A program made the position numbers and the translations under genes. Positions 1,512 to 27,347 of a DNA stretch of 64,000 nt are shown one piece after another. Numbering within the stretch: the first letter of the stretch is position 1; each line of letters starts with the position of its first letter. Source of the DNA: Podarcis gaigeae (Eukaryota); NCBI GenBank assembly GCA_964106915.2, contig OZ066926.1. One strand, given 5' to 3'. The notes under the pieces are model-generated. The model was not told where the DNA came from. It saw nothing but the letters and a program-made list of their open reading frames with translations, and searched no databases.

Positions 1512-1904
1512 CATGAAGCCATCTTCCGTGCCTCCTCCCTCCTTGGCGCATTCTCTCTTGGGGATATAGGGCGGAGGTGCCCCCTGCTGGCCGTGGGGCA
1601 GTAGTGCTCCCTTGCGGCGGTTCTTGATCCGTTTGTGCATCTCCAGCTCCACTCGGAGGCCGTCGTCATGGTGTTTCTGCTCCCGGTGGAGTTTCAGCGC
1701 CAGGCTCTCAGCTACCCGCTGCTTCTCCCGCAGGGCCTGGGCCTCCTCCTCTAGGTCGGAGGGTGACAAGCGGGCACTGGAGAGCGGGACAGGTGGGGGC
1801 TTGGCCCTGGCCACCTGGTAAGGCTTGAGGCGCTCCAGCAGGGCTGGCTTGGTGCCAGAAACAGGGAGGCCCCGCTTCCGGAGCTGCTGGCGGAGTTCGG
1901 AGAC
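1512..1904 (-). CDS. MAMSTR: MAMSTR coding exon 10 (SAP domain + coiled coil)
   Basis: VSELRQQLRKRGLPVSGTKPALLERLKPYQ...ALREKQRVAESLALKLHREQ; ATG|GTGAGC donor. Confidence 0.93.
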
Positions 1905-3229
1905 CTGGGAATCAAAGCAGCGGCCAAAGGAAATTAAGGCTGGATCTACACTGGTTGCAAAAATGCTATAAAAAATAAGCAATAATAACTCTTAAGGCAA
2001 TTTGCAATTGACGACGGATGCCTGCTCTACAGCACCCTCTGGTGTCACATTTTTATAATGCATTTTTAACATTATAACTGGCCTGTGTAGGTTTGTCCTA
2101 CAAAAGGTAGTATAGAATATTAAACAAGACACCAGGAATGGTCAAGTATCAGGCATGTGGGATCTACTTTGCTTTTTATAGGACTCTTCTTCACCCCGCA
2201 AAGATCTGCCAACAGGAGCATGGTGCAAAAGACTGGCATTCAGCATTAAAGAATTCTGAGCCCGGGAATTTGTTTTGAATGCCAGAATGGAACAGAGCTC
2301 ACAGTCCTTCCATGCAGGCAACCCATTCCTGGTTTTCTTCCTCGCTTTCACTATTCATCAGTATAATTTAGAGTGCAGGCCTAGGGGTCAATCTGTTGCA
2401 GCTATTGATAAACAACTGACAAGTCAGGAAACCTTGCTGATCTATTGCAAATCACACAGCCTACTGACCACCCCTAAAATACACACATATTGTGTGTGTG
2501 TGTGTGTGTGTGTGTGTAGTATAGTTTTATTGTTACATGTTCCCCTCCCTGAGCAATAAAAAGATCCACGACAGCACACTACCCAGGCTCCGCTTGCTCT
2601 AGAGAATATTAACATGTGTTTATCAAGTAGGGGGATAAGTGAAGGCATGTGCAGCCTGCACACTTTTGCCAGGTGGCAGATCTACAAGTCCCACCACATT
2701 AGATCCCCGGAGAAAAGCACCCAAAGAAATACCTAGAGATGCTTCGAACCCTCAGTTAACTTAGATCTCTCTTCTCTCTTTCTGCCCCATTCTGTCTTCC
2801 TTTTGTTTGGAAGCAGGAAAGTCCAGGCCTTTAGGGAAAACGGGGCACTGCCCCACTGACCTTAGCCTGCAAAACTCAGCAAAGAGGAGCAGGAGGATGG
2901 GGGGGGGGGGCAAAACTTAGTTATCTCTGCCTGTCCTTGGCTCTGGCTCCACCTGCTCCTGGCCTCTCTGCCTGTGGCACCAGACGCCAATAGTTGGGAG
3001 AGAATGTGTCTCCCCTTCCAAGCTCGGATAGTTCCTGGGCCGCTTACCAAGAATCTGCCAGATGAAAGGAAAGGCTGGTCAGCAGCCTTCAAGGGGTGGT
3101 TATGAAGGCAGGTGAAGTTGCACATACTCTGCAGTCTCATCTTAGAAGATCAGGAATTACCAACGGGTATAATTCAAGGATGGAAGCTTCCCCAGAGTTC
3201 CCCAGAGTTCCCTCCCTTCATTTCACAAC

Positions 3230-3278
<49 letters not shown>

Positions 3279-6200
3279 ATATCTTTCCCCCGCTACCATT
3301 TTATTTCTTGGCTTTTGCTCGCTTTTGTTTTTTAAAGTTTTTTAAAGTTCTAAAGTCTAAAGTGGCTTCCTAACAATGAATAAATAAAGCAACCACCCCC
3401 AAATAAAACAGAATCGGCAGTAAGCAGTGGGAAAATACCATTGAAACAACAGCTCTAAAATCAAAGGCGACTTGGGGATAAAAAGAAAAATAAAGTCTTA
3501 GTCTGGTGATTAATTCTAATCACTAGTGCAGGGACCAGTCCATAATCGGGGCACCAGCACTGAAAAAGCGCTTGCCCCCTCCTCACCACTTCAGGAAGTT
3601 TTTAATGTTTGGCATTTTTTTATGTTTTTATATGTATTGGAAGATGCCCAGAGTAGGCAGGGTATGAATAACAAAGTTGTTGTTGTTGTTATCTTATCTC
3701 GGACGACAGGGGGCAATCAGAGAGAGAGTTTTGGATGCAGATCTTAACCCATGGGCAGGTGGTTCATGGGAAAGGAGGAGGCCTATCCTCCTTCTAGGTG
3801 GAGAGCCTCGGGCGCGGGTGCAAATAAAGCCCTCCTGTCTTCTCCATCTGGCCTTTGGCAGTTCCCTCTAGGCCACTCCCTTTGGCCCTGCTCTGCCCCT
3901 TCCCAACAAGAGCTTTTGCCTGGCTGGACTGTGTCCTTGCACTCTTGCTCACCTGGATGGAGGTGGGTCGGGGGTGAGATTATGTGAAGAGACCTCTGGC
4001 TTTTGTGTGTAGCCTGCTGAAGAAAGGAGCAACATCCTTTGCTCTGCCCGCCTGCTGCCTCGGCCCCACCCACCTTGCCCATGTGGCCTTCAGAAAGTTG
4101 CCCCCTTGTGCTGACGATTACATGCCCGTCCTCTAGATCGTCCCATCTAACCAGGTTCTTTGGAAGCCTGGCTCTCACTGCAACAGAACGGCTGAAGCGG
4201 TTATTTGCAACTGAACTTGATTTGCAGAAACCATCTCCAAGAGCGGAATTCCGTCCACGCGGAATCCAATGTGTGATGGCTGGGAGTCCTCCTGCCCCAA
4301 CTCACCGTTAGCTCCTCCAAGTTGGCAGGCAGCAGTTCCGGTTTGGGCGGCGAAGGGGAGGTTGGCGTGGCTGGAGAGGGGAGAGGGAGCGGGTGAGGCC
4401 CACTTGGTGGCGCAGGCGTCCCAGCGAAGCTCAGGACCTGCTCTGGAGCACTGCTGGGCAAAGGGAGAAAAGAGAGGCGTTGATGCTGGGTTTCCCCATC
4501 CCAATCTTCTCTCCGGCCTCGCTAGTGTGCTTTTGTCTAGGGACAGCTTTCCAGGAAGCAAAACGGCTTACCTGGCTGGGACAGCGTGCACGGCTCGGAC
4601 GCAGAAGGTGGCTGGCGACGTCGGCGTGGGCTGCTGCTGGCTCATGATCTGGAGCTGCAAGAAGACCTGCTGCTGCTGGAGGACGCGGGCGTAGGCCGCA
4701 TCCATGGGCACCGGCGCCTGCTCCCCCTTCTGGTCGGGTGGCATGTACTGGTGGTACTTGAGCTTCTTCACTTTGGGGCGCGGTTCCTTGGCCTTCTTGG
4801 GGCGTGGGGGCTTCCTGGCCTCAGGGACCTTGGATGGGGCCTGTGAAAGGCATCAAAGTGTGTGAAAGAGAGCAGGGACTCTCAAAAGACAGTGGTGCAT
4901 AGTGGTTAAAGCAGGGGGGCTTTCTAGAGCTAGGTAATACTGCTACCTTAGGCACCCCCGTTTCCTAAATTCTTAGGCCTTCAGAACATGGGTTAGCAGC
5001 AGAGGGAGAGACCAGGGGCCAGCCTCCAACTGTCCTCCCTGCCGCAAAAGAACATCTGACTCTGTCCTTATGCAGGAGCAAAGGTAGGGGGTGAAAACCA
5101 GCCACCTGTTTGTCTGTTTTTTTGCATTGGGTTATATAGATTCACTTCTTCATTAGCCTCCCAACTAAAGTAGGGATGTATAAAAGGCAGAAATATTCAA
5201 GAACCCTCAGAACAGGTTTTGTATGGCAGCAGTGCAAATGCCAATAAAACCATTTCAGTCAGTGAAAAGCAATAAGGCAGACTTAGCTGGGCACCTGAAT
5301 GGCAATGAAGACAGCAGCGGACATGTCCCCCCCCCCCCCCGAGGACAGCTGTGGGATGTCCTCCCCCAGATGCCTTGCGCTCCCCCAGAAATCTTTGCTC
5401 ACTTTTCCCTACGTGAAAAATCGGCGGGGTGAGGAGACAAAGTTTCCCAACAGCACTGTTCAAAATAGGCAGCTCTCTGGATTCGGCCTGCAATTCATCC
5501 TGCACCAATTCATACTTTTCTCTGATAAAAGACAGAGCAGTGGGCTTCTGCTTCCTCCCCAACCTCCCTGTTCCTGCTTCTGATTGTCTCTACCTTGAGG
5601 AGTGAAACGGAGGGCTTGGCAAGGGGGCTCCCCCCTTGGGGAGGGAACTCAGCCTCAGAGGTGGATGAGGACACAGGAGGCAGCTGTTGATCCAGGATCG
5701 GAGGGAGGTCCAGCTGCAGGGAGAAGAGGGAGAAAATGGAGGCCAAGTACCCTCCTAGCTCCCAACTCCTTCACCTCCTCTAAACTGGCAGCCCCCAAAC
5801 TTTCCTTTCCTATAAAGCCAAGCATCCTTCCCTTCTGAGAGTTAAGCTTTCAGCTTTCCCATCAGCTGGCATGCCCCAGTTTTCCCTCTTGTGTATAATT
5901 TCAGCTGAGAAGAAGAAGACCTGCAGCAGTGGGAACAGCGAGAGGCAATGCTTCTGGGTAGAAAGTGGGACAGGGCTATAAAGCCATCAAAATCGAGATG
6001 TGGAAAATATAGAAACAACAAGGAGAGGCAGGACTGAGATGTGGAGATATGCTTCAGAGATCCAGATCGTGGGCTGGTCCGAAAAATTAATGATTATAAT
6101 TTGGACTATAATTTGGTGCTTTTTATTTTAATTGGAGTATTATGATTGGAAATATTGATTGGATGTTTTTTATTGGAAAATCAATAAAAAATGATTAAAA

Positions 6201-9200
6201 AGAAAGTGGGACAGGGCTTTGAAGGAGGTGGTAGGGAGCTGGGGAGTCGACAGGGGCTGGTTTGCTATACAGTACCTGCCCACCACGTCCAGCCTTAAAA
6301 CCCTAGATTCTGTCCTGAAGCCTAGAATGGGAATTCTTTGGCATCTGCACAAAGACGTACGAAATAGAAATGACTCTTGGGGTGCAGGATTCTGTCCTTC
6401 CATGCCTGCCATGCCTGCCAGTTTAGGCCTCAGTGGGTCGCACATGTAAGGGTTTGTTGGAGTGGCAATCGAGGTAATGAAAGTGGCAGCTCTAACCTGA
6501 AACTCCCCACCACCACAAGAGCAGCAGGCTGGCAGCAGGCCTAGTTATGTTAACTTCTAAATAATTCTGCTGTGTATAATTTTGAGGGGGGGATATTATT
6601 GTGTCCTGCAAAAGGGGAAAAGAGGCCAACCCCTCACAATTCACCCATCATTGTGCCTGCAATATTCAAACATGCCCTGTAGAGGGCAGCACAACCACAT
6701 CATATACAGTGGTACCTCAATTTAAGAACAGTCCAGTTTAAGAACGATTTGGTTTACAAACTCCGCAAAACCGGAAATAATGTCTTGGTTTGCGAATTTT
6801 ACCTCGGTCTAAGAACGGAATCCGAACGGTGGAAGGGCACCAGCGGTGGGAGGCCTCATTAGGGAAAGCGCGCCTCGGTTTCAGTTTTGGTTTAAGAACA
6901 GGCTTCCGGAACGGATTAAGTTCGTAAACCGAGATACCACTATATACGGTATTTATTTCACTTACTTGCAAAGAGAGATATTATAAATTATTTAGATTGA
7001 TTGGTTGATTTTACAACTTTGCTTTTCCAATATTTACAACCCTTCATGTTTCAGAGTGTATGTACAGTGGTACCTCTACTTACAAACGCGATCTGTTTTG
7101 GGGTGCTGTTCGCACCCCGAAAAGTCTGTAAATAGAGCGCCACTACTGCGTGTGCGCGAAGCGCGATAGAGAAGCACGGCGAACCTGGAAGTAAACACTT
7201 CCAGGTTTGCCGCATTTGTAACCTGAAAAGTCGCAACGTGAAGCAAACGTAACACGAGGTATGACTGTGAAGGTAAAAGGTAAAGGGACCCCTGACCATT
7301 AGGTCCAGTCGTGGCCGACTCTGGGGTTGCGGCGCTCATCTCGCTTTATTGGCTGAGGGAGCCGGCGTACAGCTTCCGGGTCATGTAGCCAGCATGACTA
7401 AGCTGCTTCTGGCGAACCAGAGCAGTGCACGGAAACACCGTTTACCTTCCCGCTGGAGTGGTACCTATTTATCTACTTGCACTTTTGACGTGCTTTGACG
7501 TGCTAGGTGGGCAGGAGCAGGGGCCAAGAAACAGGAGCTCACCCCGTTGCAGGGATTCAAACCGCCACCTTCTGATCGGCAAGTCCTAGGCTCTGTGCCA
7601 CCCACGTCCCTGGTATGACTGTACTTGGACGTAAATTCATGAATGAAACTTGGACTTCAAGATTACTCCACTTCTTTTGTGAATTCACTAGGCCTTTTTG
7701 ACAACCCAGTTTGTCCAGTGTATTTCTGTGTGGACCTGGGCCATAAGCCACGGGAGGTGTGGGTATCAAGGGGTGTTTTTAACAAAAGTGTGGAGACCGC
7801 TCAATAAGGAGGCAAACCTTACACCTCAGGAGCCATTTCTGGCCAATCTGTTGTGCAAGCCATGCTACCACCTCACTTCACATGAAACTCCCAAAAGGGT
7901 GAGAGGTGGTGGTGGCTAGTAACTATTGGAGCTGACGAGGTGGTGATGAACAACTAATGGCCCCGTTTGCCCTGCACATTTAAAGCAGTACCTTGACACT
8001 TTAACAGTCATGGCTTCCCCCCCAAAATAACGGGAAATGCAGTCTGCCAAGGGTGCTGTGTGGAGGCGCCCTATTCCTTCACAGATGCTATTCCTGGGGA
8101 AATCCAGGAATCGCAGCTCCATGAGGGAATTGGGATTTCTAACAGCTCTCAGCACACTTAACCAACTACAGTTCCCAGAATTTTTGGGGAGAAGCCGTGA
8201 CTCTTTGCAGTAGCATGATATTGCTTTAAAAGTATAGTGCAGATGGGGCTGGAGTCAACTTATTCTGGTCCTCCCCCCTCCCTCCTCCCTTTCAAAGATG
8301 CAGTGCTCACTTAAGCAATTCTCAGACACGAGAATCAGATATTTAATACTGAGAGGGAAAGCTGGACACTTACAAAATATTACATTTCCAGGAGTATGCA
8401 CCAAGCGCCCTGTTCTTATCCCCTGTTCCCCTTTCATATTATGTCTCTTCAGCATGTACAGGTGAGTTCTACGCAGTTGCTTACCTGAAAGGCCGCCGTT
8501 GCGGTGGAAGGGTTCCCATGGGCACTTCCAGGAGACAGTGCAAAGCAGGGGGAAGAGGAGGAGGAGGAAGAAGAAGAACTACTGAGATCTTCCTCAAAGG
8601 TGAAGGAATCAGGAGCAGCGAGAGTTGCATCTGCAGACGTTTTGAGTGAGAGAAAGGAGGGAAGGCATTATTATAGCAGGGTAGAAGAAACAACTGTTGT
8701 TGTTTCTCACATAATTTTCACACCGTTGTTAGTTTTTCACATCGTGAAATCCAGGGATGACTTAGGGGCCTGTTCCATGTCATTTGCCCAAGTGCAAGGA
8801 TACCTAGTTGTGGCCCTAAAACATGTGGCCGGAGGAGGGGGGCGGGGCGGGTGGACGAGCAAACACACACACACACAAACAAACAAACAAACAAACAAAC
8901 AAACAAACAAACAAACAAACAAACAAACACACAATTGTCTTTGTCACCTTCAAACTTGTGGAAGGTGGCTATCTGCAGCAGGGAACCTGTTAACAGAGTC
9001 TCCCCATACATTTTAGAACCCTGGAAAATCAAGAGTTCTAGAAGGTGAGTCCCCATGTATACAAAAGGCTCCTTACTGCGGAAGCTCACGAGCTGGAAGG
9101 CATTTGAGAACTGTGACTGGGTAGAGCTTATTTGCTTATCCTTGCAGCCTGGCCCTCGCCCCCAGCCACACATGTTTAGCTGATGCATTGCCTGAGGAGG

Positions 9201-11164
9201 GAAGGAGGGTGATTTGATGGGTGCTAACAAAGCAGCAACTGGAACCCTGCTCTGCACACATTCCATCCAAGGAGCCGAGAAGTCCCAATTAGGCAGCCCT
9301 TTTGCAAACCTTTTGCAAAAAGCTCCCCCAATTTCCACCATGTTTCTTCTCATAACAACCTCCCGCTGTCAATATTCCCATTTTGCAGATGAAAATGAGG
9401 CAAAAGGCTGCGTGCCAAGCCTGAGACAGAGGCAGGATTCAAAGCCACTTTTCCAAATTCAGCTCCCTAACCCTCACCGGAATTCGCTCTATCCTGTTAC
9501 AATCCCTCCTGCTGGGATTGCGCCAGAGTCCAAGCGCTTTCCATTAGGACCTGCCCCTCCATAAACAGCCACTGGATCCCTCCCGTCTCCCAGGCAGGAT
9601 TCCCTGTTTCCACTCCATGAGACAGGAGGATTCCCTAGTAAGGAGAATGCCAAGTCAAGTCCTTACCCGCCATAGCATCCTTGATACCTGGATCCAGGGA
9701 GAGGATGTTTTTCTTCACCAACTCAAGTGGTCCAGGGCGGTGTAGGATCTTCTCACTCAGGTCTTCGGCCAGGCGAGCCTTCTTGTCCTGCAGCTCAGAA
9801 GGGTCCCCCGGAGACACTGCAGTGAGAAGAGCAACTATCAGAAGAGCAGGCTTGTGGGATCAGGCAAGAGGACCCTGCAGTCCAGAATCCTACCTCCCAA
9901 CAGGAGCCAGCCAGATATTCCTGGGGCAAACTCTGCAAACAACGTTTGAGGGATGTAGTCATCCCCTGGGGTGACCTGGAAATCCAGTTGGAAATCCAAG
10001 GTCCATTTGCCTTATTTCCACATCAATTTGTGATTTATTTATTTTTAAAAGAAGTCTGCAGAAAAAATAATATGCATATTTCTCCTAATGTGTGCATTTT
10101 TAAATGCTACTTTGCCTAATATTTTGCAAACAATTTTCCCTAATGTAATTTCTGTACATTCTTTTTGCTAATTTGTGTGTTTTTGCACACACTTTCCTCC
10201 TAATGACATGCATTTTATCTGCTCCTTTTGGTTTGCGATCTGCACCGCAAAATTCAGAGAAGCGCTGTAAGTCCTGGAAGGCCTGCTTCTTGCCCTGCTC
10301 CTTGCCCTTGGCTTTCCCACCAGGCCTGGGAGGGCAGGGCCGGGACGGACTCCAGCTACGAAAGTTGAGGCTGCAGAACAGATTCTTGAGCTGCAGTATT
10401 ACTTAGGGGTTGTTCTTGCTGTTGTTTATACTAATTTTTTGTATCTTTATTTTAGACCTGATTATCATTCATGTGGCAATTGTTTTGTGTATTTGTCTAT
10501 TTTTTGATGTCTTACTTATTGTTTATGACTATTTTTGTTGTAATTATGTGTTTTTTTTCATGTTGTGAGCATGGTTTGATTTGTGGGAAGGTGGCATACA
10601 AATGAAATGATGTGTGTATGTATGTATGTATGCATGTATGAATTTCAAACAATCGCTGCATTTGGGTGAATTAGGCAGGCTCACATTAAAATATAAGCCA
10701 AACCAAATGCCTTCTAGGCAGAAGTTGCTCCTTACCTTCTGACAGCTGGCCCTTAGCAGTGCTGGTCTTGTGGGGCCGGGGTGAGACTTTCAGCTTGGCA
10801 ATCTCATTGGCCTGAGGAGAAAGAAGCAGAGGAAATTTTAGCATCCTTAGTCAGGTGCTCAGGTAGAAGAGCTAGGAGGGATCTTTTGCTCACTTAGGCT
10901 CTGAAGAACCACCGCCAGTCAGAGTTATGCCTTCCAACTTTTTTCATACCCAGGAAGACCCTACTTGAATTGCAACCCTGCAATGTGGAATCCACATTTA
11001 ATTTTTCAGTTATGCACGCCCATGGCCAATGCATAGAAGAGGGAATTTTGGTAGCTGCAGCTTGCGGGACTAAGATAACAAAAATCTGCACCACCATACC
11101 CTACAAAATGTCATATATTTTTTTATAAGAGTCCAAAATGCCTGCCTTCCATTGCTTCTGCGCG

Positions 11165-11209
<45 letters not shown>

Positions 11210-14200
11210 CTCTATTTTTGGGCTGGGCTGCCTCCAGGCCTGAACAAAACAACCACTAGCAGTGGCTGTCTTCCTCCAGTGGTGGGATATAAATGCAGTA
11301 AATAAATAAATAAAATTAAAAAGCACCTGCCATTTTAGATATGCCTCTGCTGCCGTGCATAAATTTCCCATATACCACACTGTGATTAATATATTTTTAT
11401 GTCTTTTTATTTTACAATAATTGGTGGTGGATTTTTATTTTTTTTTTGCATTTGAAAGTTTGGTCTGGACCCCGTTCCTGCTTGCACACCACACTCAGGT
11501 GCGCCCAGAGCAGTGGCCTCTTGCTTCCTGCAAAAAGAAGTCGCTCCTCGCTGGGAGATGGATGCTTAATAGAGTCGGTGTCTGCAGGGTTCTCTACAGA
11601 TTTTCCTTCTGTAACAATGTTTGTAATCGTACTTTGTTTTTGTCTCTTCTTTAGTTGCCAGGCTAATAATTTCCCACATTTATTTGCAGATTCAAAATTT
11701 CTTTGTCTCATCCTTCTTATCTTCCATTCAATTTCTTGATTTACTAACTGTGAATATTGAACCTATAGGGCTTTAATTTCTTACTGGATCTGCAAATTCT
11801 TTGGGTTTCCTCTAAGCTTCTTCTCTTTATCTTTCAGTTGTTCCATAATTTTATCTTTTGTCTCATTCTGTGACTTTCTCCTAATTCCATTTTGTTGTAT
11901 CAGAAACCCTCTCATTACCGCTTTGCTGGCCTCCCAAATCACCCTTATTTCCATTCCTTGATTCATATTGAGTTCAAAATAATCCTTTAGGGTTTTTTGG
12001 GCCTTATTGACAATTAATGAGCTTCTCAGCAGATCATCATTCATTCGCCATCTGAAGGAACCCTGAACAAACATTTCCAGAACAAAAAAATTCCTTCCAG
12101 TAGCACCTTAAAGACCAACTAACTTAGTTCTTGGTATGAGCTTTCGTGTGCATGCACACTTCTTCAGATACACTGAAACAGAAGTTACCAGACCCTTCTA
12201 TATAGTGAGAAGGTGGGGAGGGGTATTACTCAGAAGGGTGGTAGGAATGGGTGATTGGCAGATAGCTGTGATGAGCCTGTTGACGACTCTTAACGGCTGC
12301 AATAGGTCTTACAGGTCTGAGACATCAGGAATCACAAGACAGAGAAACCAGTAGGAGAACACTTCAATCTCCCAGGACATTCTATACAAGATCTCAAAGT
12401 AGCTGTTTTACTAAAAAGGAATTTCAGAAATAGACTGGAAAGAGAAGCTGCTGAATTGCAACTTATTACCAAACTTAAAACCATGGAGAAACCTGGTCTG
12501 AACAAAGACATTGGATTCTTATCTCATTATACATGACAAAGCCATTTTTCACCTTCTCACCCCTTGCTTTTTCCTGTAAGACCTATTGCAGTCGTTAAGA
12601 GTCATCAACAGGCTCATCACAGCTATCTGCCAATCACCCATTCCTACCACCCTTCTGAGTAATACCCCTCCCCACCTTCTCACTATATAGAAGGGTCTGG
12701 TAACTTCTGTTTCAGTGTATCTGAAGAAGTGTGCATGCACATGAAAGCTCATACCAAGAACTAACTTAGTTCGTCTTTAAGGTGCTACTGGAAGGAATTT
12801 TTTTGTTTTGACTATGGCAGACCAACACGGCTACCTATCTGTAACTGAAACATTTCCAGGTCCATATGGGTGCTTAATAGAGTCAGTGAGCAGTGGACTC
12901 TCACAGAGTCCCATCAGACACTCATAGCGCTGCTTCCCACACATTGTTCTAAGCCCTGAGCCCAGCTGGTACTCACCCTGTTCTGGCCCTGGGTCCCATT
13001 GGGCTGCGAGAAACTTGCAAGGGGTTTGTTGAGTGCTGGAGGGATGATAAAGGGGAGCATGTTAGCAAACTCTAGAAGAAACTGCCCTCCCTACCTGCTG
13101 ATTTTGGCCTGCCACTCTGTTGTTGCTAGTCCATAAAGAAAGAAAAAAGAAAAGTGGCAACCTTATCTCAATGTTAGAAGACCAGCTCTTCTTTCCCTAG
13201 CACCCATCCACTCCTTCATCCATGCAGAAATCCCCTTTGCAATGTGACTCCCTTCACTTTTTGCAAAGGGGTGCGAGGGAGGGGCTCACCTGGGAGTAAG
13301 TGGCGTTTGGAGAGCTGCTCTTGGGACCTCCGGTGTTCCATGCGCAGCTGCAGAACTGTAAGGGAGGTGACAATATATGAATAACGGTAATTACTTTATT
13401 TGTCTCAGCCAACAAGCAATAAAAAAGCAGTGAAAAATTCAACTCTTAAATCATTCGGCGCTACCCACCCTCCCACCACAAAGCTAAAATGAAGCCAACA
13501 ATTGATATATAACTCCAGATTACTGATGTTGACAAAGTTTGTAATCACTTGGGCTGAGAGTTGTTAGGAGATTCACTGCCCAGAGCCAACAACTCTCACT
13601 ACTCTTAACAAACAACAGCACTCAGAATTTGTTTTTTTGGGGGGGAGATCCATGGCTGTTAAAGTAGGATCACAGTGCTTTAAATGTATGGTGCAAATGT
13701 GAACAGGCTTATTTGCCCAGCTCCTACTACTCAGCTGCATTATGAATCTAGCACTGTTCCCCCCAAAAGTTCTTCTCTGGTTCAGAATGCGTAATTAGAT
13801 TTTTCAGGGGTTTCATACCTTGGGTTACAGGTGCTTCAGGTTGCGTTTTTTTGGGCTACAGATGCTCCGAAACCCAGAAGCACTGGAATGGGTTACTTCT
13901 GGGTTTCGGCGGTCACGCATGTGCGGAAGTGCTAAATTGCTCTTTGCGCTTGTGCAGAAGCTCCGAATCGCAACCCGTGCATGCACAGATACAGCGCTGT
14001 GGGTTGTGAACGCTGCAGGTTGCGAACGTGCCTTCCACACGGATCACGTTCGCAACCCGAGCGTCCACTGTATTATCTTTAGAAATGAATGGTTCACTGT
14101 GGTTGTGCTTTGATACGTAACCCCTGCTCTCATCTGGTTGTGAACTGCTTTGGCAAGCCCGTGTGGAAGGGCAGCCTACAAATTGAAGTAAATAGCTACT

Positions 14201-17200
14201 ACTACTACTACTGCCACCACTGCCACCAACTAAAGCCTGCAGCTTTGTAGAAGCATGCACAACATTTCTTTGCTGTCAACCTACTTCCTCTCAGTTAAAC
14301 CTTTAACTACTTATTGTGATTACCAGCAGCTCTCCTCCACAGCTGATGCTGAGAACTATAGCTCCCAAGGGGCAGTGCAGAAAAGTGAAAATGCACAGCA
14401 CAACCATTACAAGGGCAGGAGAGAGCCCTTGGGAAACAAATGAAGGGGGGGGGTTGAGTGTGCACAAAGGATGCATGCAATTATCCACTCCTGAAGTGAA
14501 GGGAAAGGAGTTTGCACTCGTTGTGGTTTGAGATTTTAAAGTGACAAATAAAAGCAAGCTAATGAATACATGTTAGGCAGAAATAACTAAAACAAATTAC
14601 ACCATAGAATTAAGGTCTTTTGTGGCTTTAATCTGATTTCAAACTTGCAAACCAGCAAGGATCAAGATGCTCTGGAGTCTCAAATGTTCAGTCCAGCAAC
14701 CCACTGAAATATTGGGTGCTACTTTGCTTTATCTTTGACAACTGTTACTTATTCAGAGCTTGCTCCAGAGAGTGGCAATGCTGGGCATTTGCTGGGGCCC
14801 AAAGAGCAGCAGAAGGCTCAACGCCCTAACACTGTTACAATTTCCAGAGAATATCCAATAAGATCAGATGCAGCCAGAGAATTTTCTTATCTCCCACCTC
14901 TTCCGGATTAGGGGCCACCAGTGAGGGTGCCATGCCCAGAGCCCCCCAAATCCTGGTACTAGCACAGTCAGTATTTATGTATACTGCATCACAGTACACA
15001 TGATGTTACACAGGTAAAAACAGACAGATCGCTGGCCCCAAGAAACTTACAATGGGAGATATGAGGGCAGGGATGAAAAAATGTGGGTGCTGCAGTTGGG
15101 ACTAAGGAGAAAAGTTAAAGGTCTATGGACAGGTACTTTTTGAGGAGGGGTCTGAAGGAAGGCAGGGAGGCGGCACAACATTTGATTCTGGGGAACTCAA
15201 GACTGTCCACAGTGCATTGAATGAGATTTGAATGGAGTGGGCAAGATCTCTGTTGACTTGAAGAAATTGAGGGAAACTGGATTGGAGAGATCACCCTATT
15301 GAACAACCCAGGATGCATCCAGGTTTGCAAAGGCGTGAGGCAAGGTAAGGCAACACAATGTTCTCTGGAATTGCTTTTCAATAAAACAAACTGAGATCAA
15401 AATGCATCAAGCTTTTACTGACTGCTGTATGATACTGGGTAATTATACTGTGGAATTGGAAGGGGAAATTAAACGGGGGGGGGGGGGAGAATCACACAAA
15501 ACTGGCCTGGAAATGAATATATAAAAATGAAATGGATGCAAATTAAGTATTGCCCAGAAGCCTCTATTTAAACAAACAATGAAAAAATTGAAAAACTGGG
15601 AATTACATCTTGTTTGACCAACAAATGACTAAATCCAGCCCTTTTGGAGGCAAATCCAAGCATCAGAAGAAAGGTCTGCCTTAACGGAATAAATTCATAA
15701 TTACTTGTCAATGAATGGCAAAATGAAAGCTAAAGGAGAAATTTACAACTCAGCACTGAAACCTCCTGTGGATCTATGCCATATAGTGTGGTGTAGAAGT
15801 CTGTTATATCTATGGTTGGTTGACAACATTAGCTGATGTAGCATGACAACATTAACTCATACATAAAGATCTGTGGTACGATGTATGCACATAATGTTTC
15901 TTTGTTCCCATATGCCATGGGAGAGACATGACAGGGGACTGGTGTAAAAGAGCTGCAATACGAGGCCATCTATGATATCAAGTGTAGAAGGGCCAGCTAT
16001 TTGGTCTGCCAAGCAAGACAACAGGTGGACTTTCCCACCGCACAGAATAGATTCCCAGGGATCAAGTGCATCCCCTTGGCAGAAATAAAATGTGATGAGG
16101 TGATCCAATGACGAACCCGTTTGGTTCCCAGTGGAAACAACATGCTCAAGATGGAACAGAATGGCGAGGCGATTCTGTACATTCATGGAGGAGGAACGAA
16201 CAAGGAAGAGCCAGAGAGAATTAACTTAGGAGGCTCTGATTTGGAACAAGGACAAGAGCAAATCTGCAACCTCCTTGGTTTACTCTGCCTCTTTTACTCC
16301 CAACAGTGAATATGTGCCCCTTAGCATTACAGAGTTAATGTTTTCCAGTATTTGAGTTCTCCATTTGTTATCTAGCGTCCATTTACAAAGGGCAATCGAA
16401 TGAGCGATGGGGCAAATCCTTAACCATGGCAGTTTGACAAGGTATAGGCAAAAATATTTTTCCGGGCATCGCTTGGAATCTAAATGTTTGATGAGGGTAA
16501 TAATAATTACAAAGAAGTGAATCAAAAAGCATCCACCAAGAAGACATGGAAGGCATAACTGTACGACAAACTGGTCTAATTGGCATGCTCTCTCACATAC
16601 CCTGCACAAACAGAGGGGGGGGGGGGAACCTGGGAATTATAATTTTTGCAAGGACGTCGAGAGTTCTCTGTAAGTGTCCCCCACATCACAGGGAACCAGG
16701 TAGAGTTGGGAGGCTACCTGACACCCTTTAAAGCAGGTGCAGGGAATATTATTCAGTCCAACAGTCACATTTGCTTTTGGGCAACCTTCCAGGGGCCACC
16801 TGCGAGGTGGTGGGCAGGACCGGGGGCAAAAGTAGGCGGAGAAAGAAATGCAAATTTTGCCTGTGTACAGTAGGCTGGTTTCAGCACGCACTCATACACC
16901 CCTCTCCATATAGCCAAGCAAGAGGCATTGTTCAAGGACACATTCCAACCGGGGAAAACATTTGAGAAGGGTGCAAAGTGAAGGCAGTGAGGGGTGTGGC
17001 CTGGGGAAGGGGGTGTGGCCTGGAGACAGCCCTGAGGGCCAGGTGAGAGGCCCAGAGGGCCACATTTGGCCCCTAGACCCGAGCTTCCCCACCCCTGCTT
17101 TAGTGCTATGTCCTATGCATTAATTTAACTGGTAATAAGGAGCCAGTGTGGTGTAGTGGTTAAGAGCGGTAGTCTCGTAATCTGGTGAACCGGGTTCGCA

Positions 17201-20200
17201 TCTCTGCTCCTCCACATGCAGCTCCTGGGTGACCTTGGGCTAGTCACATTTCTGCTTTGAGACTCCTTCAGGTAGTGATAAAGCGGGATATCAAATCCAA
17301 ACTCTTCTTCTAATAATTCTGCCCCTTTCTCCACCCAGAATCCTTAGCATTTTCATTCTCTAAAGAGGCCAGGAAGTTGGGACAGAATTCTCAGCACACT
17401 TAGAAAACTGCAGTTCCCACTGTTCCCTGGGAAGGGAGCCATGGCAATTTGAAATGGAAAGTGAATCAAGTAAGCCGGACCTGGACCACATTCACACCAC
17501 ACATGTCATATCACTTTAAACTATCATGGTTCCCCACCCCCAAAAGAATTCTGGGAGCTGTAGTTTGTTATGGGTGCTGATAAGTTATTGGCAGGCCCCT
17601 ATTCCCCTCACAGATCTACAGTTCCCAAAACTCCCTTTGAAGAGGGATTGACTGTTAAACCACTCTGACAATTGTAGCTCTGCATGGGGATTGTCGGGGT
17701 CACCAGCACAGAGGCACAACTATAAAATAAGTCCAAATGCACTGGAAACTTAAATTAGTCTTGCCATCCCCGACCTTGGAACAGAAGCAGTTTTCAGGGC
17801 CCTTAAAAAAACACCATGTCTATAAGCCCACAGAAATTCAAATGCTGCTGCACTGGGGACATCGCTGGGAAGGATAACCTTGTCCAAGCAAGAGCACCAA
17901 AGGGATATGGCTGAGTGGGTGAGCCCTCCCCTTGCTCTGCCGTCAAACAGCAGGCACGTCATACCTTTGGAGGGTGGGACTGCTGCAAGCGTTTCTATTC
18001 CTGTGCCCGCTTCTCTCCTGCCTGGGCATTTGTCCCGTTGTCAGCAGCAGCTGGGGTGACGCCACTCGCTATTTATTTAAAAGGCTGGAAACACAAGATG
18101 CCCCAAACTCCCAGGCCAGAGGCTGACTGCAAGGACTGCTTGTGGGGAACCCACCACCAAACTGCAGCCCCTCCAAGTGACCCCATTTTCCAGGGACACC
18201 CCAAATTTACAGAAGCCATCCCAGTTTTTGATTTGATTGCAGGTCCCGCTTTTCCTTAGGATGTTCCTATTTTCATCGGAGAAATGTTGGAGGGTATGGA
18301 GTTAGGTGACCTCAGAGCCAAGGATACAACTTTTAGAAGACACCTGAAGGCAGCCCTATATAGTTTTATTATGTATTTATACGGATTGCCACACAGAATA
18401 TTCTTATTATTATCATTATTATAGAATAGGGTGCCCCTATTTTCTTTGGAGAAATGTTGGAGGGTATGCAAATACTCAACATGAGGGGCAGGACATGGGG
18501 GCATTGAGTATTTCACCGATTTGGGGAACTGTAGCCAGTTCCAGGCCCTCAATATGAGAACCTGCATACACTCCACATACTGTACTTAAAGCATTCTGGG
18601 GGCTGTTTTAGGGCCAGTTCGCCCCCCCCCCCACTTTTCTAGTCACTTCCAGGTTCAGTGTGATGTTTGCTTGCGCAGTCACGCACATATTGAACACGCA
18701 TAAAACGGTTGTTGCCTGTAATCAATACACTCATTGAATATAAAACACATTTTTGCATCAGTGCTTCACTGCTGGAGCCTTTTTGAGAAACTGGAGGAAG
18801 CAGGATAATTTACAAGTTAATAAACAAAAGCTGCCACTTCACATATACTATGTAAAAGAACGAAAGTTTACTACCCCAGCCTTCTCTCTCCCCACTTCTC
18901 TTCTTCCCCAACTTTAACTGTCTATAATATTATTGTCTCAGATCGAATATAAGATCTGCAGAAAAGATTCTATGAACGAAAAACTGAGGCACTGTGTGTA
19001 CCTCTGTACTTCAAGAAAATCTTTGATAAAAACAATTTTTAAAAAAGTTGTCACACATTATTCCTGTGACTGTACTGTGTTTTTAACTGTTTCTAATTCT
19101 AAATTGTTGCAACCTACCCTAGGACCTGCCGGTGAAGGGCCAATAGTAACAGTATTAGTAGTAATAATAAATATTATTTAGGGGCAGGAGAGATCATATT
19201 TTTCATTATTATTATTATTATTCCCTAGCACCAGAACCAACACAGCCACTAATACACAAGGAAACAAGTGTCCCTGAATGTTCAGTGGGTCCTCCTTGAT
19301 TAAAAATGGTCCCTGCAAAAGCTTTAGCAAACCTACCAATTAAAAGCAATGCTGCTTTTCGTATTGCACAAGCGGGAGCTATATATGTGGAGAAATTACG
19401 AAGGGTGGTTTGTAACAGGAGAGAAACATGTGAGGTACAGAAAAACACCATAGTTGCCACCAAGGAACGACTATGATGCCACAGGCAGGTTGACTGATTA
19501 CTAAGACTGGCTAGGCCTGAACAAAATGGCTGCTGGACGCCAGGGTTAGGTTGTGAGGTACCGACGGAATGGAAAAGTGACAAGTGGTTGTGAGGAAGAG
19601 CATGACCCTGGTCCTTACAACTGACTCATATGGCTGTCACACACCATACATTTAAAGCAAGTGATTTCCCTCAAAGAATCCTGGGAAATGTAGTTTGTTA
19701 TGGGTACTGGGAATTGTAGCTTTGTGAGGGACTGATCTGTGCTGCACTGTGCTTCCCATTGCCCTGCCTGGTCAAGCGAGTGGTAAAGTGACACATTTAT
19801 TGGCTGTGCAGGGGGAAACCTTAAATGCATTCCTAAAAAAAAACCAAAAAACCCTTTAGATTTGAAGGTAATCCAGAAATATTCAGAATCAGGGCTGGTT
19901 CTCTCTCTGTTCTGCCTTAGGTACCTCCACCTACATAGATAGGCAATGTCGAGTTGCCAGAATTAAACTCTGTGCATGTTCAGAGGCACTCAGTCTAAAC
20001 TGATGCAGTTTTTGAAAATTGAATATGCCAGACCTTCCCTTCCTTCACTCAGCCGGTGCCCAAATCTACATGAAAAATTCAGAGCCTGAAGATGTATTCA
20101 CAAATAAGTATCTGGTGCAAACAGTAACTGAACAGGAAGAGCAAACAGTCTCTCATGGGCTATGAATTTCTGAGGGGAGATTTACTAGGACCTTTTGCAG

Positions 20201-21768
20201 GTGCCACAGGAGAGACACTGGCATATGAAGGTGGCATGCTGGCAACTTCTGGTATATGGCCCACATTGTGCACCTGTGTAGTGACGTTGGGGTCGATAAT
20301 ATAATCAGCATTGACTTCAGAGTTTGTTTCAGCCTCGCAGAAACATGGCTGAGATGTGTTCCACTGAAATCCCCACCGATGGGGCCCTGAAGGCCTTATT
20401 TCGGAGGGAGGTGACACCCTGCACCCTTAATTCAGGCCCTTGACTAGTGGAGCAGTGAACTGTTGTTACAAAGGGGCAATGGGAATAGCACTCTGCACAT
20501 GCCTATAGACAACTCCTCTTTACTTGCTCCTAGAGCAAGACCTGACCACGAAAACCTGGCTCAAGTTAAGATTTGGGGGAACTGGGCCTATGTTGTGGCT
20601 CCACACAATGCAGTGCACTGAGCCAGGTCAGTGGTTAAAGTGTTGGACTAGGACCTGAGATACTAGCATTTATATCCCCACTCAGCTACGAAGCTCCCTG
20701 GGTGACCTTGGGACACTCTCTGTCAGCCTAACCTACCTCACAGGGTTGTTGTGGGGATTAAATGAGGAGGAGGAGAAAAGGCAGGATATAAATGCAATCA
20801 GTCATAGGAGCCAACTCATAGCGGCCAAGATTCCTTTGTGTGTGTCCCCTCCCCATAAAATATTTGAGGGGGCTGAGCCTCCCTAAAGTTGATGGGCATT
20901 GCCATTCAAATGGTGCTGACACAAATCTGTCCCTTGGGCCACAATTCACCACCAGCAAGGTCTCCTGTGCAGATCAGATACTTTGCTTAGCTTATTGACC
21001 TTTCCTGCAACTAGCAGAAGCTGGGAAAACCATTCAGAATAAGCAAATCTGTTACCAATTCTATCCATCGGCATCATTTATTTTCTTATGTATATATCTT
21101 ATGTTGATTTCTCTCCCCCAAAGCAGCAAACAGGATAAGGAAAACATAAAATGATATTTAAACTGAATTGAAAACTGCAGCAGAGAAGCAGCAGCAGTAA
21201 AACTACACAGAATACCTATGATTTACGCATGCATGGGAACTGACATGACCTTGCTTGTAGAATGTGTCTTGCCTTGATTTTTTTTTTTTATAACTCCAAG
21301 CAACAAAATGCAGCGTGGGCTGTTCTCTTAAGAGGACAGGAAGGTGCCTTCTGCTTAGTCAGAACTTTGGTCCACCTAGCTCAGCACTGTCAGCTCTGAC
21401 TGGCAAGAGCTCTGCAGGGTTCCAAGGCAGGGTCTTCTCTCACAGCTGCACCTGGAGGGGCTGGGAATTGAACCTGCGGCCTTCTGCATGCAAGGCAGAT
21501 GATATACTCCATGAGCCACAGCCTGTCCCTTACACAGCAGGATATCTCAGGAGGGTTCTGAGGAGAACGATTTATTTATTTTTAATGGAAGGTGAAACAG
21601 TAGGCCTTGAGGTCCCTCTGTCTTAGACTGCCATAATTACCAACCTGCAAAAAGTCTATTTTAAAAACTTAATAGCACCAAGGTGCCTAAAGCCCCACTC
21701 GGGTCCTACTTACCGGAGCGGAATTTGCTTCGGATCAGCATGGATCGTTCAGAAGCCAGGAGTGTCAT
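1512..21768 (-). CDS. MAMSTR: MAMSTR/MASTR (myocardin-family SAP-domain coactivator), 10 coding exons in window, 3' exons off the left edge
   Basis: Exons 21768-21714, 13355-13290, 13035-12977, 10811-10736, 9816-9667, 8630-8485, 5713-5594, 4840-4572, 4453-4306 and 1904-1512 all have GT-AG ends and consistent phases (1482 nt, 494 aa). Protein starts MTLLASERSMLIRSKFRSVLQLR; SAP reads LEELT|VSELRQQLRKRGLPVSGTK. Lies immediately 3' of RASIP1, as MAMSTR does in mammals. Confidence 0.9.
1938..2098. mobile_element. Decayed palindromic MITE
   Basis: GGCTGGATCTACAC...GTGTAGGTTTGTCC imperfect terminal inverted repeats with internal inverted symmetry. Confidence 0.45.
3231..3278. repeat. (CTTT)n microsatellite
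   Basis: Direct reading. Confidence 0.95.
4306..4453 (-). CDS. MAMSTR: MAMSTR coding exon 9 (start of SAP)
   Basis: ...PKPELLPANLEELT|GTGAGT; NAGNAG acceptor (4453 or 4450). Confidence 0.88.
4572..4840 (-). CDS. MAMSTR: MAMSTR coding exon 8 (basic B1 box + Q-rich)
   Basis: KPPRPKKAKEPRPKVKKLKYHQYMPPDQK...YARVLQQQQVFLQLQIMSQQQ. Confidence 0.93.
5594..5713 (-). CDS. MAMSTR: MAMSTR coding exon 7
   Basis: 120 nt, phase 0-0, LDLPPILDQQ...KPSVSLLK; strong acceptor. Confidence 0.7.
5978..6200 (+). mobile_element. 5'-truncated LINE (L1-like) 3' end
   Basis: 18-bp TSD AGAAAGTGGGACAGGGCT at 5960-5977 and 6201-6218; AATAAA and A-rich tail. Confidence 0.8.
6707..6942. mobile_element. Tc1/mariner-type MITE
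   Basis: TA|CAGTGGTACCTC ... GAGATACCACTA|TA. Confidence 0.8.
7065..7267. mobile_element. Tc1/mariner-type MITE
   Basis: TA|CAGTGGTACCTC ... GAGGTATGACTG; right TIR hit by a SINE. Confidence 0.75.
7269..7611 (-). mobile_element. Sauria (Squam1) SINE
   Basis: ACCTTT-type tail, tRNA-like head; TSD GGTATGACTGT at 7258-7268 and 7612-7622. Confidence 0.92.
8485..8630 (-). CDS. MAMSTR: MAMSTR coding exon 6 (Ser-rich)
   Basis: DATLAAPDSFTFEEDLSSSS..., resembles the myocardin FAFEEDSSS segment; GTAAGC donor. Confidence 0.85.
8862..8932. repeat. (AC)n/(CAAA)n microsatellite
   Basis: Direct reading. Confidence 0.95.
9667..9816 (-). CDS. MAMSTR: MAMSTR coding exon 5 (intact RPEL3)
   Basis: KKARLAEDLSEKILHRPGPLELVKKNILS; GTAAGG donor. 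Confidence 0.92.
10736..10811 (-). CDS. MAMSTR: MAMSTR coding exon 4 (degenerate RPEL2)
   Basis: 76 nt, ANEIAKLKVSPRPHKTSTAKGQLSE; pyrimidine tract + CAG acceptor, GTAAGG donor. Confidence 0.8.
11581..12068 (-). mobile_element. Internal L1 ORF2 fragment (endonuclease-RT linker)
   Basis: FRWRMN...YFELN...IWEASKAVMRG...FESANKCGKLLAWQLKKRQ; direct repeats TGCTTAATAGAGTC(G/A)GTG at 11563-11580 and 12871-12888. Confidence 0.85.
12134..12171 (-). ncRNA. Minimal hammerhead ribozyme motif (Penelope type)
   Basis: GUAU-CUGAAGA-A-GUGUGCAUGCACAC-GAAA-GC-UC-AUAC. Confidence 0.7.
12717..12754 (+). ncRNA. Minimal hammerhead ribozyme motif (Penelope type)
   Basis: GUAU-CUGAAGA-A-GUGUGCAUGCACAU-GAAA-GC-UC-AUAC. 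Confidence 0.7.
12977..13035 (-). CDS. MAMSTR: MAMSTR coding exon 3
   Basis: 59 nt, ALNKPLASFSQPNGTQGQNR; phase 1 to 0 links the neighbouring exons; GTGAGT donor. Confidence 0.75.
13290..13355 (-). CDS. MAMSTR: MAMSTR coding exon 2 (RPEL1-like)
   Basis: 66 nt, VLQLRMEHRRSQEQLSKRHLLP; TACAG acceptor, GTGAGC donor. Confidence 0.9.
13805..14070. mobile_element. Tc1/mariner-type MITE (left end decayed)
   Basis: Similar to the 61208 element; ends AACCCGAGCGTCCACTG|TA. Confidence 0.65.
17139..17310 (+). mobile_element. Squam3(B)-type tRNA-derived SINE, internally deleted
   Basis: A box TGGTGTAGTGG, B box GGTTCGCATCT, ends GGGATATCAAATCCAAACTCTTCTTC; TAATAA on both flanks. Confidence 0.75.
21714..21768 (-). 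CDS. MAMSTR: MAMSTR coding exon 1 (MEF2-binding peptide)
   Basis: MTLLASERSMLIRSKFRS followed by G|GTAAGT donor; matches the myocardin/MASTR N-terminus. Confidence 0.9.
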
Positions 21769-21919
21769 CTTTGGAGTCCTTGCAGGTATAATCCCAAATC
21801 TGAGGTAGGCCCCATGGATATTCAGAAGAGGGGGGAACAGGAAAAGAGGGGAAAATGATGAAGAAATCTCCAACTAGGATCTAGAGAAGCCAGCAACAGA
21901 GTGCCTGGGCCTAGGGACG

Positions 21920-23375
21920 CAGAGGTGGATATCAGCAAGAGTGGAGACCAGGGACACCTGGGTTCAAATCCCAACACAGCCATGACTCTTGCATTGTGAC
22001 CTTGGGGCGGTAACTTTCAGCCTCACCTGTCACCTATCTCACAGGGTTGTTTTGTAGATAAAATGGGGGGGGGGGGGAGTCATGGACGCCATCCTGAGAT
22101 CCTCAGAAAAAAAGGTAGGCTTACAAATGCAACTCTTAATAAAATAATCTACCACACTGGGTTGTCGTTGTAAGGCCAATGCTGTGGTAATTGTTAGCAC
22201 TACTGGACTAAGATTTGGGAAGTCGGGATTGTTCAAATGTCTGCTCAGCCATGAGGTTCACTGGGTGACCTTGGCCCAGTCACTGTTTCTCATCCTAGCC
22301 CACCTCACAGGGTTGTTGGGAGAGATAAGTGTGATATATTGAGCCCCTTTGGGGTGGGGTGGGGGAAGGTGGGATATAAATCTAAACAAATAAATAAATA
22401 AAATTTCGAGGGAGGGGCAATGGAGGGAGGAGCATTCCAGTCCTCCTGAGTTCCTTGGGGGGGGGGGGTGGAACAAAATAGCAAAATTTTAGGAAGCAGG
22501 CAACTAGCAGAAACGCAGCAGCAGGTGGAGCCGTCCGTCGCTAAAGATGCAGTTGGAGACGGGGCTTGACCTGTTGAGTTTTTGCCTGTTTAAAAGGACA
22601 GGAGCCCAGCTGGCGGCGTGTGTAAAAGAAAGAAGAGCGAGAGAGATGGTTTTGTTTGCTTTTTTNNNNNNNNNNNNNNNNNNNNNNNNNNNNNNNNNNN
22701 NNNNNNNNNNNNNNNNNNNNNNNNNNNNNNNNNNNNNNNNNNNNNNNNNNNNNNNNNNNNNNNNNNNNNNNNNNNNNNNNNNNNNNNNNNNNNNNNNNNN
22801 NNNNNNNNNNNNNNNNNNNNNNNNNNNNNNNNNNNNNNNNNNNNNNNNNNNNNNNNNNNNNNNNNCAGCAAGGACCACCCCCCTCCGCCCATCCTCCCCG
22901 TCTTCGTCCTCCGCCCCCTGCTCCCCACAGATCGCCACCGTCCCGCCTCCTTGTGCTGGCCAGGAGATCCTCCAGGCTGCCCAGCAGATCTTGCAGTTAG
23001 GGACATCCAGGAGTCCCGGCAGCATCCCTTGCAAGCACCGAGGGCTGGTACTTGGTAGTAGACGCTCCCCCCCCCCCACACTTCTTCAAGGAACCCAGGT
23101 GTCCTAGCGCCCCCGTCCCGCCGCACGCTCCCCTTTTATTAATTAATTAATTAATGCATACAATTTATATCTCGCCTTTTATTCCAAGGAGCTCAAGGTA
23201 GAATACAACCCCCCTCATTTGATCTCTACACAAACAACCCTGCAGATAGGTTTAGGTTGAGAAGCAGTGACTGGCTCAAGGTCCCCCCACCTGGTGAACT
23301 TCATGGCCGAGTGGGGATTTGAGCCGTGGTCTCCCAGGTCCTAGTCTGACACTTTAACCACTACACCTCACTGGC
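21920..23375. repeat. Cluster of decayed Squam3-type SINEs on both sides of the gap
   Basis: Recurrent GGTTCAAATCCC / TGGGTGACCTTGG / CCTCACAGGGTTGTTG motifs (also 20620-20800). Confidence 0.55.
22666..22865. other. Assembly gap (200 N)
   Basis: Run of N. Confidence 1.
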
Positions 23376-27147: not shown

Positions 27148-27347
27148 TCATTGGCTGGGATCCAGCCCGTACACTGCCCTTTGGTTGGCTGGAAGAGATT
27201 CACGCTCCAGCTCCCAGAGGAAACGTCGCAGGCGTGTGAGTTGGCGATGGAGGGTGTCATCTGACACAGGCTCTGAGAGGCGCAAGCGGAAACCGTCACA
27301 TGGAAGGATCAGGGGCGGGTGGTCTGTGAAACTCTCAAATATGTCAC
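27148..27347 (-). CDS. RASIP1: RASIP1 last coding exon
   Basis: DIFESFTDHPPLILP...LHRQLTRLRRFLWELE...stop. Confidence 0.93.

Follow-up and report, generated by a model that had tools for sequence, protein, structure and literature searches.

The window, a 64,000-nucleotide stretch of Podarcis gaigeae DNA, holds the lizard ortholog of the muscle gene MAMSTR in its long form, a gene that is not itself new. Within the window, ten minus-strand exons joined by canonical GT-AG introns yield 494 codons without a stop, the length that an initial annotation of the sequence had given for the product ahead of its C-terminal exons; use of a tandem acceptor 3 nt downstream at exon 9 gives 493 codons instead. 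Three further exons close the frame, and the full product made with the shorter acceptor is 702 aa long. It is identical at 697 of 703 positions to P0001, a RefSeq-type Podarcis model that carries the NCBI name MAMSTR isoform X1, from which it differs by five substitutions and by the serine at the tandem acceptor. RefSeq already includes the gene model, and public databases contain the MAMSTR of Podarcis. A candidate upstream exon lies at 25094-25012. The motifs that had first been noticed (RPGPLEL, the full basic box with KYHQY, the Q helix and SAP) were all recovered on the minus strand.

Table 1. Exons of the lizard MAMSTR gene, with the motifs they encode, and the adjoining gene.
Feature	Position	Strand	Content
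Exon 1	21714..21799; acceptor 21799, ATG 21768, coding 21768-21714	-	First half of putative MEF2-binding motif
Exon 2	13290..13355	-	Remainder of MEF2 motif; weak myocardin-like RPEL1 (residues 20-40)
Exon 3	12977..13035	-	Spacer between RPEL1 and RPEL2
Exon 4	10736..10811	-	RPEL2 position; RP pair sole remnant, score at chance
Exon 5	9667..9816 (150 nt, phase 1-1)	-	Remnant basic stretch KKAR; intact RPEL3 (9760-9701) with RPGPLEL (9739-9719)
Exon 6	8485..8630	-	Linker, acidic and serine-rich
Exon 7	5594..5713	-	Linker of 40 codons; absent from isoform X3 models of 3 lizards
Exon 8	4572..4840	-	Basic box B1 with KYHQY (4777-4727), putative SRF-binding core LKYHQYM (4762-4742), Q helix (4693-4646)
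Exon 9	4306..4453 (tandem acceptor 4453/4450)	-	Proline-rich linker, then SAP start
Exon 10	1512..1904	-	SAP domain; zipper helix (1727-1635) with squamate insertion
C-terminal exons (n=3)	L001, just before window position 1	-	Predicted activation region
RASIP1 exons	27175-40474		RA domain and weak DIL match

Inclusion of the exons for RPEL3 and B1/Q, on which the initial annotation depended, is borne out by spliced contigs. These derive from four runs of related lizard species, guessed to be RNA and carrying no tissue label, and they show that spliced forms exist rather than that skipping is absent or how strongly the gene is expressed. Exons 5 and 8 are each covered in contigs of all four runs; contig X5 joins exons 5-6-7-8, contig X6 joins exons 7-8-9-10, and the exon 8/9 joint (4453-4572) appears in two of the four. 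All 22 exonic differences shown in the contigs are synonymous. The stretch compared excludes exon 1, bins over exons 2-3 are swamped by repeats and the junctions directly seen start downstream of 3-4; bin depth at exon 4 fits full cover by contigs carrying exon 5, and X14, with 288 letters beyond exon 5 where 287 are expected, indirectly fits junctions 1-2, 2-3 and 3-4.

Putative docking motifs and RPEL repeats

Both the N-terminal MEF2-binding motif and the SAP domain (Pfam E 6.2e-13), as found in the MAMSTR/MASTR group, can be recognised in the product, as can the B1 core with basic flank and the Q helix of myocardin-type SRF coactivators. Residues 1-22 are identical in Anolis, turtle, Xenopus and coelacanth and match at 18 of 22 positions in two eutherians. 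Given that this motif is common to cardiac myocardin and mammalian MASTR, the N-terminus would be expected to bind MEF2.

The three RPEL repeats, scored with an MRTF-trained matrix and compared with 1000 shuffles, differ widely in preservation. Pfam finds a single RPEL in the product, at residues 105-124 (E 1.4e-06); this is RPEL3, which scores 44.1 bits, is identical to its Xenopus counterpart at 19 of 20 positions and is intact, as first annotated. RPEL1 scores 13.1 bits (best shuffle 9.0) and retains its leucines and RR, whereas between RPEL1 and RPEL3 no window scores above -10.1 bits (median of the shuffles -11.5), and the RPEL2 region is predicted to be disordered in an AlphaFold model. 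PDB RPEL-domain chains align to residues 14-135, a likeness to MRTF-A/B. The description of RPEL1 and RPEL2 as degenerate thus fits RPEL1, but of RPEL2 little beyond its position is left, so that a "near-complete toolkit" is an overstatement: the MEF2 motif, RPEL3, B1, Q and SAP are present, RPEL1 is weak and RPEL2 is at chance. The strong conservation of RPEL3 would go unexplained if all actin contact had been lost, and tells against the reading that follows.

Judging from these motifs, we consider it likely that the lizard protein is a nuclear, myocardin-like coactivator docking on MEF2 and SRF, the dual role that the initial annotation had suggested, probably without MRTF-style actin control. 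The N-terminus would dock on MEF2 and the intact B1/Q region on SRF, nuclear location is suggested by the decayed RPEL1-RPEL2 unit, and transcription would be activated through the conserved C-terminus. By analogy with the frog and mouse orthologs, the gene may have a role in muscle.

PMC2583105 describes RPEL1-RPEL2 as needed for actin-regulated import and RPEL3 as interchangeable, RPEL3 of MRTF-A as a low-affinity repeat (Kd 28.9 uM), and myocardin as constitutively nuclear. The three actin-competent repeats, with an intact RPEL1-RPEL2 unit, that actin-regulated MRTF-A/B require are not found in the lizard product. Because RPEL3 is the sole intact repeat, with RPEL2 at chance and RPEL1 weak, MRTF-type actin control is probably not to be expected, and the G-actin sensitivity first proposed is not supported in this form, RPEL2 being gone and RPEL1 weaker than in constitutively nuclear myocardin. 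One might still imagine a dual coactivator on which G-actin acts as well via RPEL3, perhaps helped by RPEL1, which outscores every shuffle: 70 of 97 non-mammalian rows retain RPEL3, its exon is skipped in frog isoforms and could be a switch, and nuclear actin is able to repress MRTF-A on SRF (PMC2583105). We nonetheless regard such tuning as unlikely, not only with RPEL2 in its present state but also given that MRTF-A regulation requires all three repeats, that myocardin is nuclear even though its RPEL3 is as good and its RPEL1/2 are better, and that alligator and bowfin rows have no RPEL3 at all. Improbable, too, is a broader scenario in which non-mammalian MAMSTR acts in muscle as one coactivator bridging SRF and MEF2 under tuning by nuclear G-actin via an RPEL3 that frogs can splice out, the module has been dismantled piecemeal by lineage, and the LTYHQYM of most eutherians is an unrecognised residual MADS-box contact. 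In that scenario alligators and bowfin would have lost RPEL3, squamates the register of the zipper, and eutherians RPEL3, Q and zipper.

The lizard core LKYHQYM keeps six of the seven residues of LKYHQYI, given as the SRF-binding core in PMC2819691, with the final Ile replaced by Met. Since LKYHQY is intact and B1 (16/17) and Q (14/16) are nearly identical to MYOCD, docking on SRF through B1/Q may be expected. The zipper is less straightforward. Its helix is predicted to be continuous (H411-462) in an AlphaFold model that is mostly of low confidence (mean pLDDT 52.5) and says nothing on dimers; the coiled coil initially listed is here a predicted helix. Its last heptads, however, are out of register with both myocardin and non-squamate MAMSTR. 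An insertion of 1-4 residues shifts the register in 44 of 44 parsed squamate sequences and in none of 59 others, which may weaken dimerisation, and about four heptads ahead of it retain leucines at core positions. Could the protein then serve MEF2 only, as in mammalian MASTR, with B1/Q retained because they act in import into the nucleus or contact other partners? The core ends in Met as in eutherians, the zipper register is shifted while the zipper is described as required for MRTF/SRF transcription in PMC8199744, and B1 also acts in nuclear import (PMC8079280). Yet the close match of B1 and Q to myocardin, the conservative nature of the Ile to Met change and the core leucines before the insertion make a MEF2-only function distinctly unlikely, and we retain docking on both partners as the preferred reading.

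Orthology, names and ancestry

In a tree of 47 rows, the 25 that represent MAMSTR, spanning sharks to eutherians, fall into a single clade with support of 100/100; the clade recurs at 100/100 in a second tree of 43 rows and 275 columns, built under a mixture model with RPEL, B1/Q and zipper excluded and four long-branch rows dropped. AU tests reject placing the lizard and other squamates with MYOCD (p 3.6e-78), or the long forms with MYOCD in a group that leaves mammals outside (p 3.6e-10). A plain amniote clade of sauropsids and mammals is mildly rejected (p-AU 0.022), probably owing to the long mammalian branch. The genome contains four B1/Q loci, namely MAMSTR and three others with sequences matching MYOCD, MRTFA and MRTFB rows, a separate MYOCD-like locus among them. 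RASIP1 adjoins MAMSTR, as expected for the ortholog group, and alligator model P0060 fuses the same two neighbours. RASIP1 is included in the human FUT2/MAMSTR locus in PMC7744576. The joint tree of MYOCD, MRTF and MAMSTR that the initial annotation had proposed as a check, together with the AU tests and RASIP1 adjacency, establishes the gene as MAMSTR. A duplicate of myocardin or an MRTF, in place of the ortholog of mammalian MAMSTR, is a reading largely refuted and scarcely credible: domain content like that of cardiac myocardin, the mild rejection of the amniote clade and the myocardin name on 23 of the 60 matches listed would favour it, but both trees, the AU tests, the three other paralogs and the neighbouring gene contradict it.

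The names themselves bear out the expectation that pipelines would mislabel the gene, with myocardin or myocardin-like names on 7 of 25 squamate rows and on those 23 of 60 overall, among the matches listed.

The long form is not specific to squamates but common to most non-mammalian jawed vertebrates: it is found in sharks, ray-finned fish, coelacanth, lungfish, amphibians and turtles, and B1 in 95 of 97 non-mammalian rows. It is best read as ancestral, as had been supposed from amphibians, going back beyond these to sharks. Eutherian MAMSTR, at about 390-450 aa, is without basic flank and zipper, and neither RPEL3 nor Q occurs in any of 16 eutherian rows. Mammalian MASTR had been said to have neither RPELs nor a functional B1/Q region; in eutherians RPEL3 and Q are indeed absent but B1 is not entirely so, with a near-intact SRF-binding core, LTYHQYM, in 11 of the 16. 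We infer an early decay of RPEL2 along the MAMSTR lineage, followed in eutherians by the loss of RPEL3, basic flank, Q and zipper. Note that no bird, marsupial or monotreme MAMSTR appears among the named matches listed, an absence that, coming from word-based searches, is not evidence of loss and sets no date for the mammalian loss.

Relation to known systems

In current teaching, MASTR of mouse and human is the one myocardin-family member that works with MEF2 alone. By this comparison that state is derived, and therefore muscle and regeneration work in reptiles, amphibians and fish likely involves a fourth SRF cofactor; many "myocardin" annotations in such studies are likely MAMSTR. The stepwise losses amount to natural swap experiments on the contributions of B1, Q, RPEL3 and zipper. 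The evolutionary story is otherwise modest, the gene being a real ortholog that is already annotated. A literature search with most subscription journals outside its reach listed nothing on MAMSTR in reptiles or on how the gene evolved across vertebrates.

Among known systems, Xenopus MASTR or myoskeletin (rows P0053-P0055), reportedly treated by Meadows et al. 2008, belongs to the same clade and has the same architecture, with identity to the lizard at 22/22 positions of the MEF2 motif, 19/20 of RPEL3, 16/17 of B1, 13/16 of Q and 29/34 of SAP. The lizard protein differs in the Met of its SRF core, in being about 100 aa shorter and in its zipper insertion, the frog zipper being in register; in frog isoforms, either the RPEL3 exon or the N-terminus is left out. 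Squamate RefSeq models (XP_053217236.1 for Podarcis, XP_008115413.1 for Anolis) already list Pfam RPEL and SAP. Eutherian MAMSTR/MASTR (P0130-P0149, P0282), the ortholog, has the MEF2 motif and SAP in common with the lizard protein, as well as C-terminal blocks and what remains of the B1 core. Cardiac MYOCD resembles lizard MAMSTR in a MEF2 motif overlapping a non-canonical RPEL1, in a canonical RPEL3, and in B1, Q, SAP and zipper position, but is a separate paralog with an in-register zipper, another C-terminus and a recognisable RPEL2 (23-55 bits, against -10 in lizard MAMSTR). MRTF-A and MRTF-B, finally, share RPEL3, B1, Q and SAP with the lizard protein, but have three working RPELs and actin-gated import, and lack the MEF2 motif.

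Gene structure and identity

The motifs named by the initial annotation were found on the minus strand at the positions it assigned to them, and the 494 codons it counted before the C-terminal exons form an open frame over ten exons, with GT-AG introns throughout (at the tandem acceptor of exon 9, the upstream AG gives 494 codons without a stop, the other AG 493). Completed by three terminal exons in the neighbouring stretch, the product agrees with P0001 (MAMSTR isoform X1 of Podarcis in NCBI's naming) at 697/703 positions, so that a model of this gene, with Pfam RPEL and SAP attached, is already public. The gene is a real, correctly read ortholog of a known coactivator and was annotated before.

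Coordinates of features in and around the window (genome position G000:C25:18662001-18726000)
Feature	Location	Strand	Remarks
MAMSTR exons 1-10	window 21768 to 1512	minus
Zipper with insertion	window 1727-1635		insertion squamate-wide, 1-4 residues; P0001-P0025 and relatives
Terminal MAMSTR exons (three)	L001 (neighbouring stretch) 9270-9133, 8700-8646, 8243-7807		close the frame
Open frame, LINE reverse transcriptase-like by eye	window about 130-1330	minus	400 codons; within intron 10
RASIP1 exons	window 27175-40474	minus	RA domain and a weak match to DIL
Netrin-like gene	L006 (neighbouring stretch) 5705-3129	minus	complete laminin N-terminal domain; about 54 kb downstream
ATG-led stretch	window 25094-25012	minus	27 codons
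Near-perfect two-E-box palindrome	window 25017-24999		0/100 shuffles
Assembly gap	window 22666-22865		200 bases; 5' of exon 1, where GC and CpG are rich
Tandem repeat	window 55594-56014		123-base unit, about three copies

The genome holds four B1/Q exons: that of this gene on C25, and those on C2, C21 and C26, loci with sequence matches to MYOCD, MRTFA and MRTFB rows. The MAMSTR identity is borne out by maximum likelihood: 47 chosen proteins compared over 684 columns yield a single clade (100/100), separate from MYOCD and MRTF-A/B, that unites the lizard protein with squamates, turtles, alligator, amphibians, coelacanth, lungfish, ray-finned fish, sharks and six eutherian MAMSTR rows. With a mixture model applied to the 275 columns that remain once RPEL, B1/Q and zipper are taken out, and with four long-branch rows omitted, the clade again received 100/100. 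AU tests rejected both a grouping of squamates with MYOCD (p 3.6e-78) and one of the long forms with MYOCD to the exclusion of mammals (p 3.6e-10). A sauropsid plus mammal clade is mildly rejected as well (p 0.022), which counts against a tidy picture, and mammals sit on a very long branch (1.14). The predicted mislabelling does occur: among the matches listed, 23/60, and 7/25 of the squamate ones, are named myocardin or myocardin-like.

The alligator model P0060 fuses the neighbours MAMSTR and RASIP1, and the human FUT2/MAMSTR locus is described as including RASIP1 (PMC7744576). Bird and eel myocardin models (P0124, P0102) have an MRTF-like first exon and miss the MEF2 motif. The netrin-like gene may be NTN5, in which case it, too, would presumably be longer than its mammalian form.

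Further upstream, the ATG-led stretch lies in a CpG-rich patch and encodes a peptide that agrees at 26/27 residues with the start of gecko model P0014; the GT donor that follows it falls inside the palindrome. Joined by splicing to the acceptor at 21799, the stretch would place 38 further residues, in frame, ahead of the MEF2 motif; unspliced, it forms an upstream ORF of 28 codons. It could be a conserved promoter, a uORF or an alternative first exon, and the assembly gap could hide a 5' exon.

Distribution of the long form

We surveyed 97 non-mammalian (isoforms and fragments included) and 16 eutherian MAMSTR-type rows. Among the former, the B1 core is present in 95/97, the Q pattern in 89/97 and a strict RPEL3 in 70/97, and 56/97 combine all three with the MEF2 motif; RPEL3 is absent from the alligator and bowfin rows. 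RPEL3 or Q occurs in 0/16 eutherian rows. Given these counts, the long form is most simply the ancestral state, as had been proposed, at the level of jawed vertebrates; being present in most non-mammalian rows, it is not a squamate speciality.

Mammalian MASTR had been characterised as lacking RPELs and a functional B1/Q region. RPEL3 and Q are indeed absent, but a B1 core remnant, LTYHQYM, persists in 11/16 eutherian rows (P0130-P0149, P0282), which argues that in mammals the basic flank and Q have gone but the core has stayed. Two rodents read LTYHLYM, one bat LTYDQYT, and the remaining two rows begin farther downstream. Since rodents carry Leu for Gln here, mouse may not represent other mammals.

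Xenopus MASTR, a myocardin-related factor, reportedly cooperates with MyoD (Meadows 2008); that study is also reported to describe the frog protein as myocardin-like. In the literature searched, whose coverage leaves out most subscription titles, we found no paper on reptile MAMSTR or its vertebrate history.

Predicted MEF2 and SRF contacts and improbable actin gating

Reviews assign MEF2 binding in myocardin and MASTR to the N-terminal motif (PMC3362810, PMC9900090). The lizard motif is identical to those of frog and coelacanth and matches two eutherians at 18/22 residues. Six snake rows (P0009, P0010, P0015, P0017, P0023, P0024) have it altered (RSKFR to RRRFR, SER to SEQ); elsewhere it is fixed.

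B1 shares 16/17 positions with myocardin, and Q shares 14/16. The SRF-binding core, LKYHQYI (PMC2819691), differs in the lizard by a final Met, and lizard MAMSTR would likely bind SRF. For mammalian MASTR, two sources describe the absence of an SRF-binding domain and no known SRF binding (PMC4526231, PMC8806183). Judged by sequence, the lizard protein likely represents the ancestral form and likely acts via both MEF2 and SRF.

The suggested G-actin sensitivity fares less well. On a matrix trained on MRTF repeats (MRTF scores are therefore circular), RPEL1, the RPEL2 region and RPEL3 score 13.1, -10.1 and 44.1 bits, where 1000 shuffles give a median of -11.5 and a maximum of 9.0 and myocardin reaches 32-50, 23-55 and 51-58. 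RPEL1 is thus weak, the RPEL2 region lies near the shuffled median, and AlphaFold predicts no helix over residues 39-89. Of the three MRTF-A repeats, RPEL3 is a weak binder (28.9 uM); regulation depends on all of them, and it is the RPEL1-RPEL2 unit that determines actin-regulated import (PMC2583105). A review puts the relative part played by RPEL1 in other terms (PMC8079280). Because the lizard protein departs from MRTF more than constitutively nuclear myocardin does, it is probably not actin-gated, a reading that leaves the strong conservation of RPEL3 unaccounted for.

The closing zipper leucine sits at offset 18 in all 59 parsed non-squamate rows (26/85 unparsed) and at 19-22 in all 44 parsed squamate rows (3/47 unparsed); 16 rows have proline there. 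About four heptads ahead of the insertion keep their leucines, the end point coincides with that of the MRTF-A zipper, and the helix is predicted to be continuous. Squamate dimerisation may be weaker or altered.

Transcripts and isoforms

Spliced contigs, guessed to be RNA, came from four runs in four studies of related lizards and were compared over 1790-20700. Contigs from all four runs cover exons 5 and 8, in line with the expected inclusion of the RPEL3 and B1/Q exons. One contig of run X5 joins exons 5-6-7-8, one of run X6 joins exons 7-8-9-10, and the joint of exons 9-10 is present in 4/4 runs. Depth in the exon-4 bin (1.05, 2.10, 2.99, 2.35) fits full cover by exon-5 contigs, which predicts 1.06, 2.13, 3.04 and 2.37. 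Among the exonic differences listed between contigs and window, 22/22 are synonymous.

Exon 7 is the only exon skipped in lizard isoform models. Xenopus isoforms (P0053, P0342, P0343, P0341) can omit the RPEL3 exon or, lacking the first 82 residues, begin beyond the MEF2 motif, a pattern reminiscent of the smooth-muscle isoform of myocardin.
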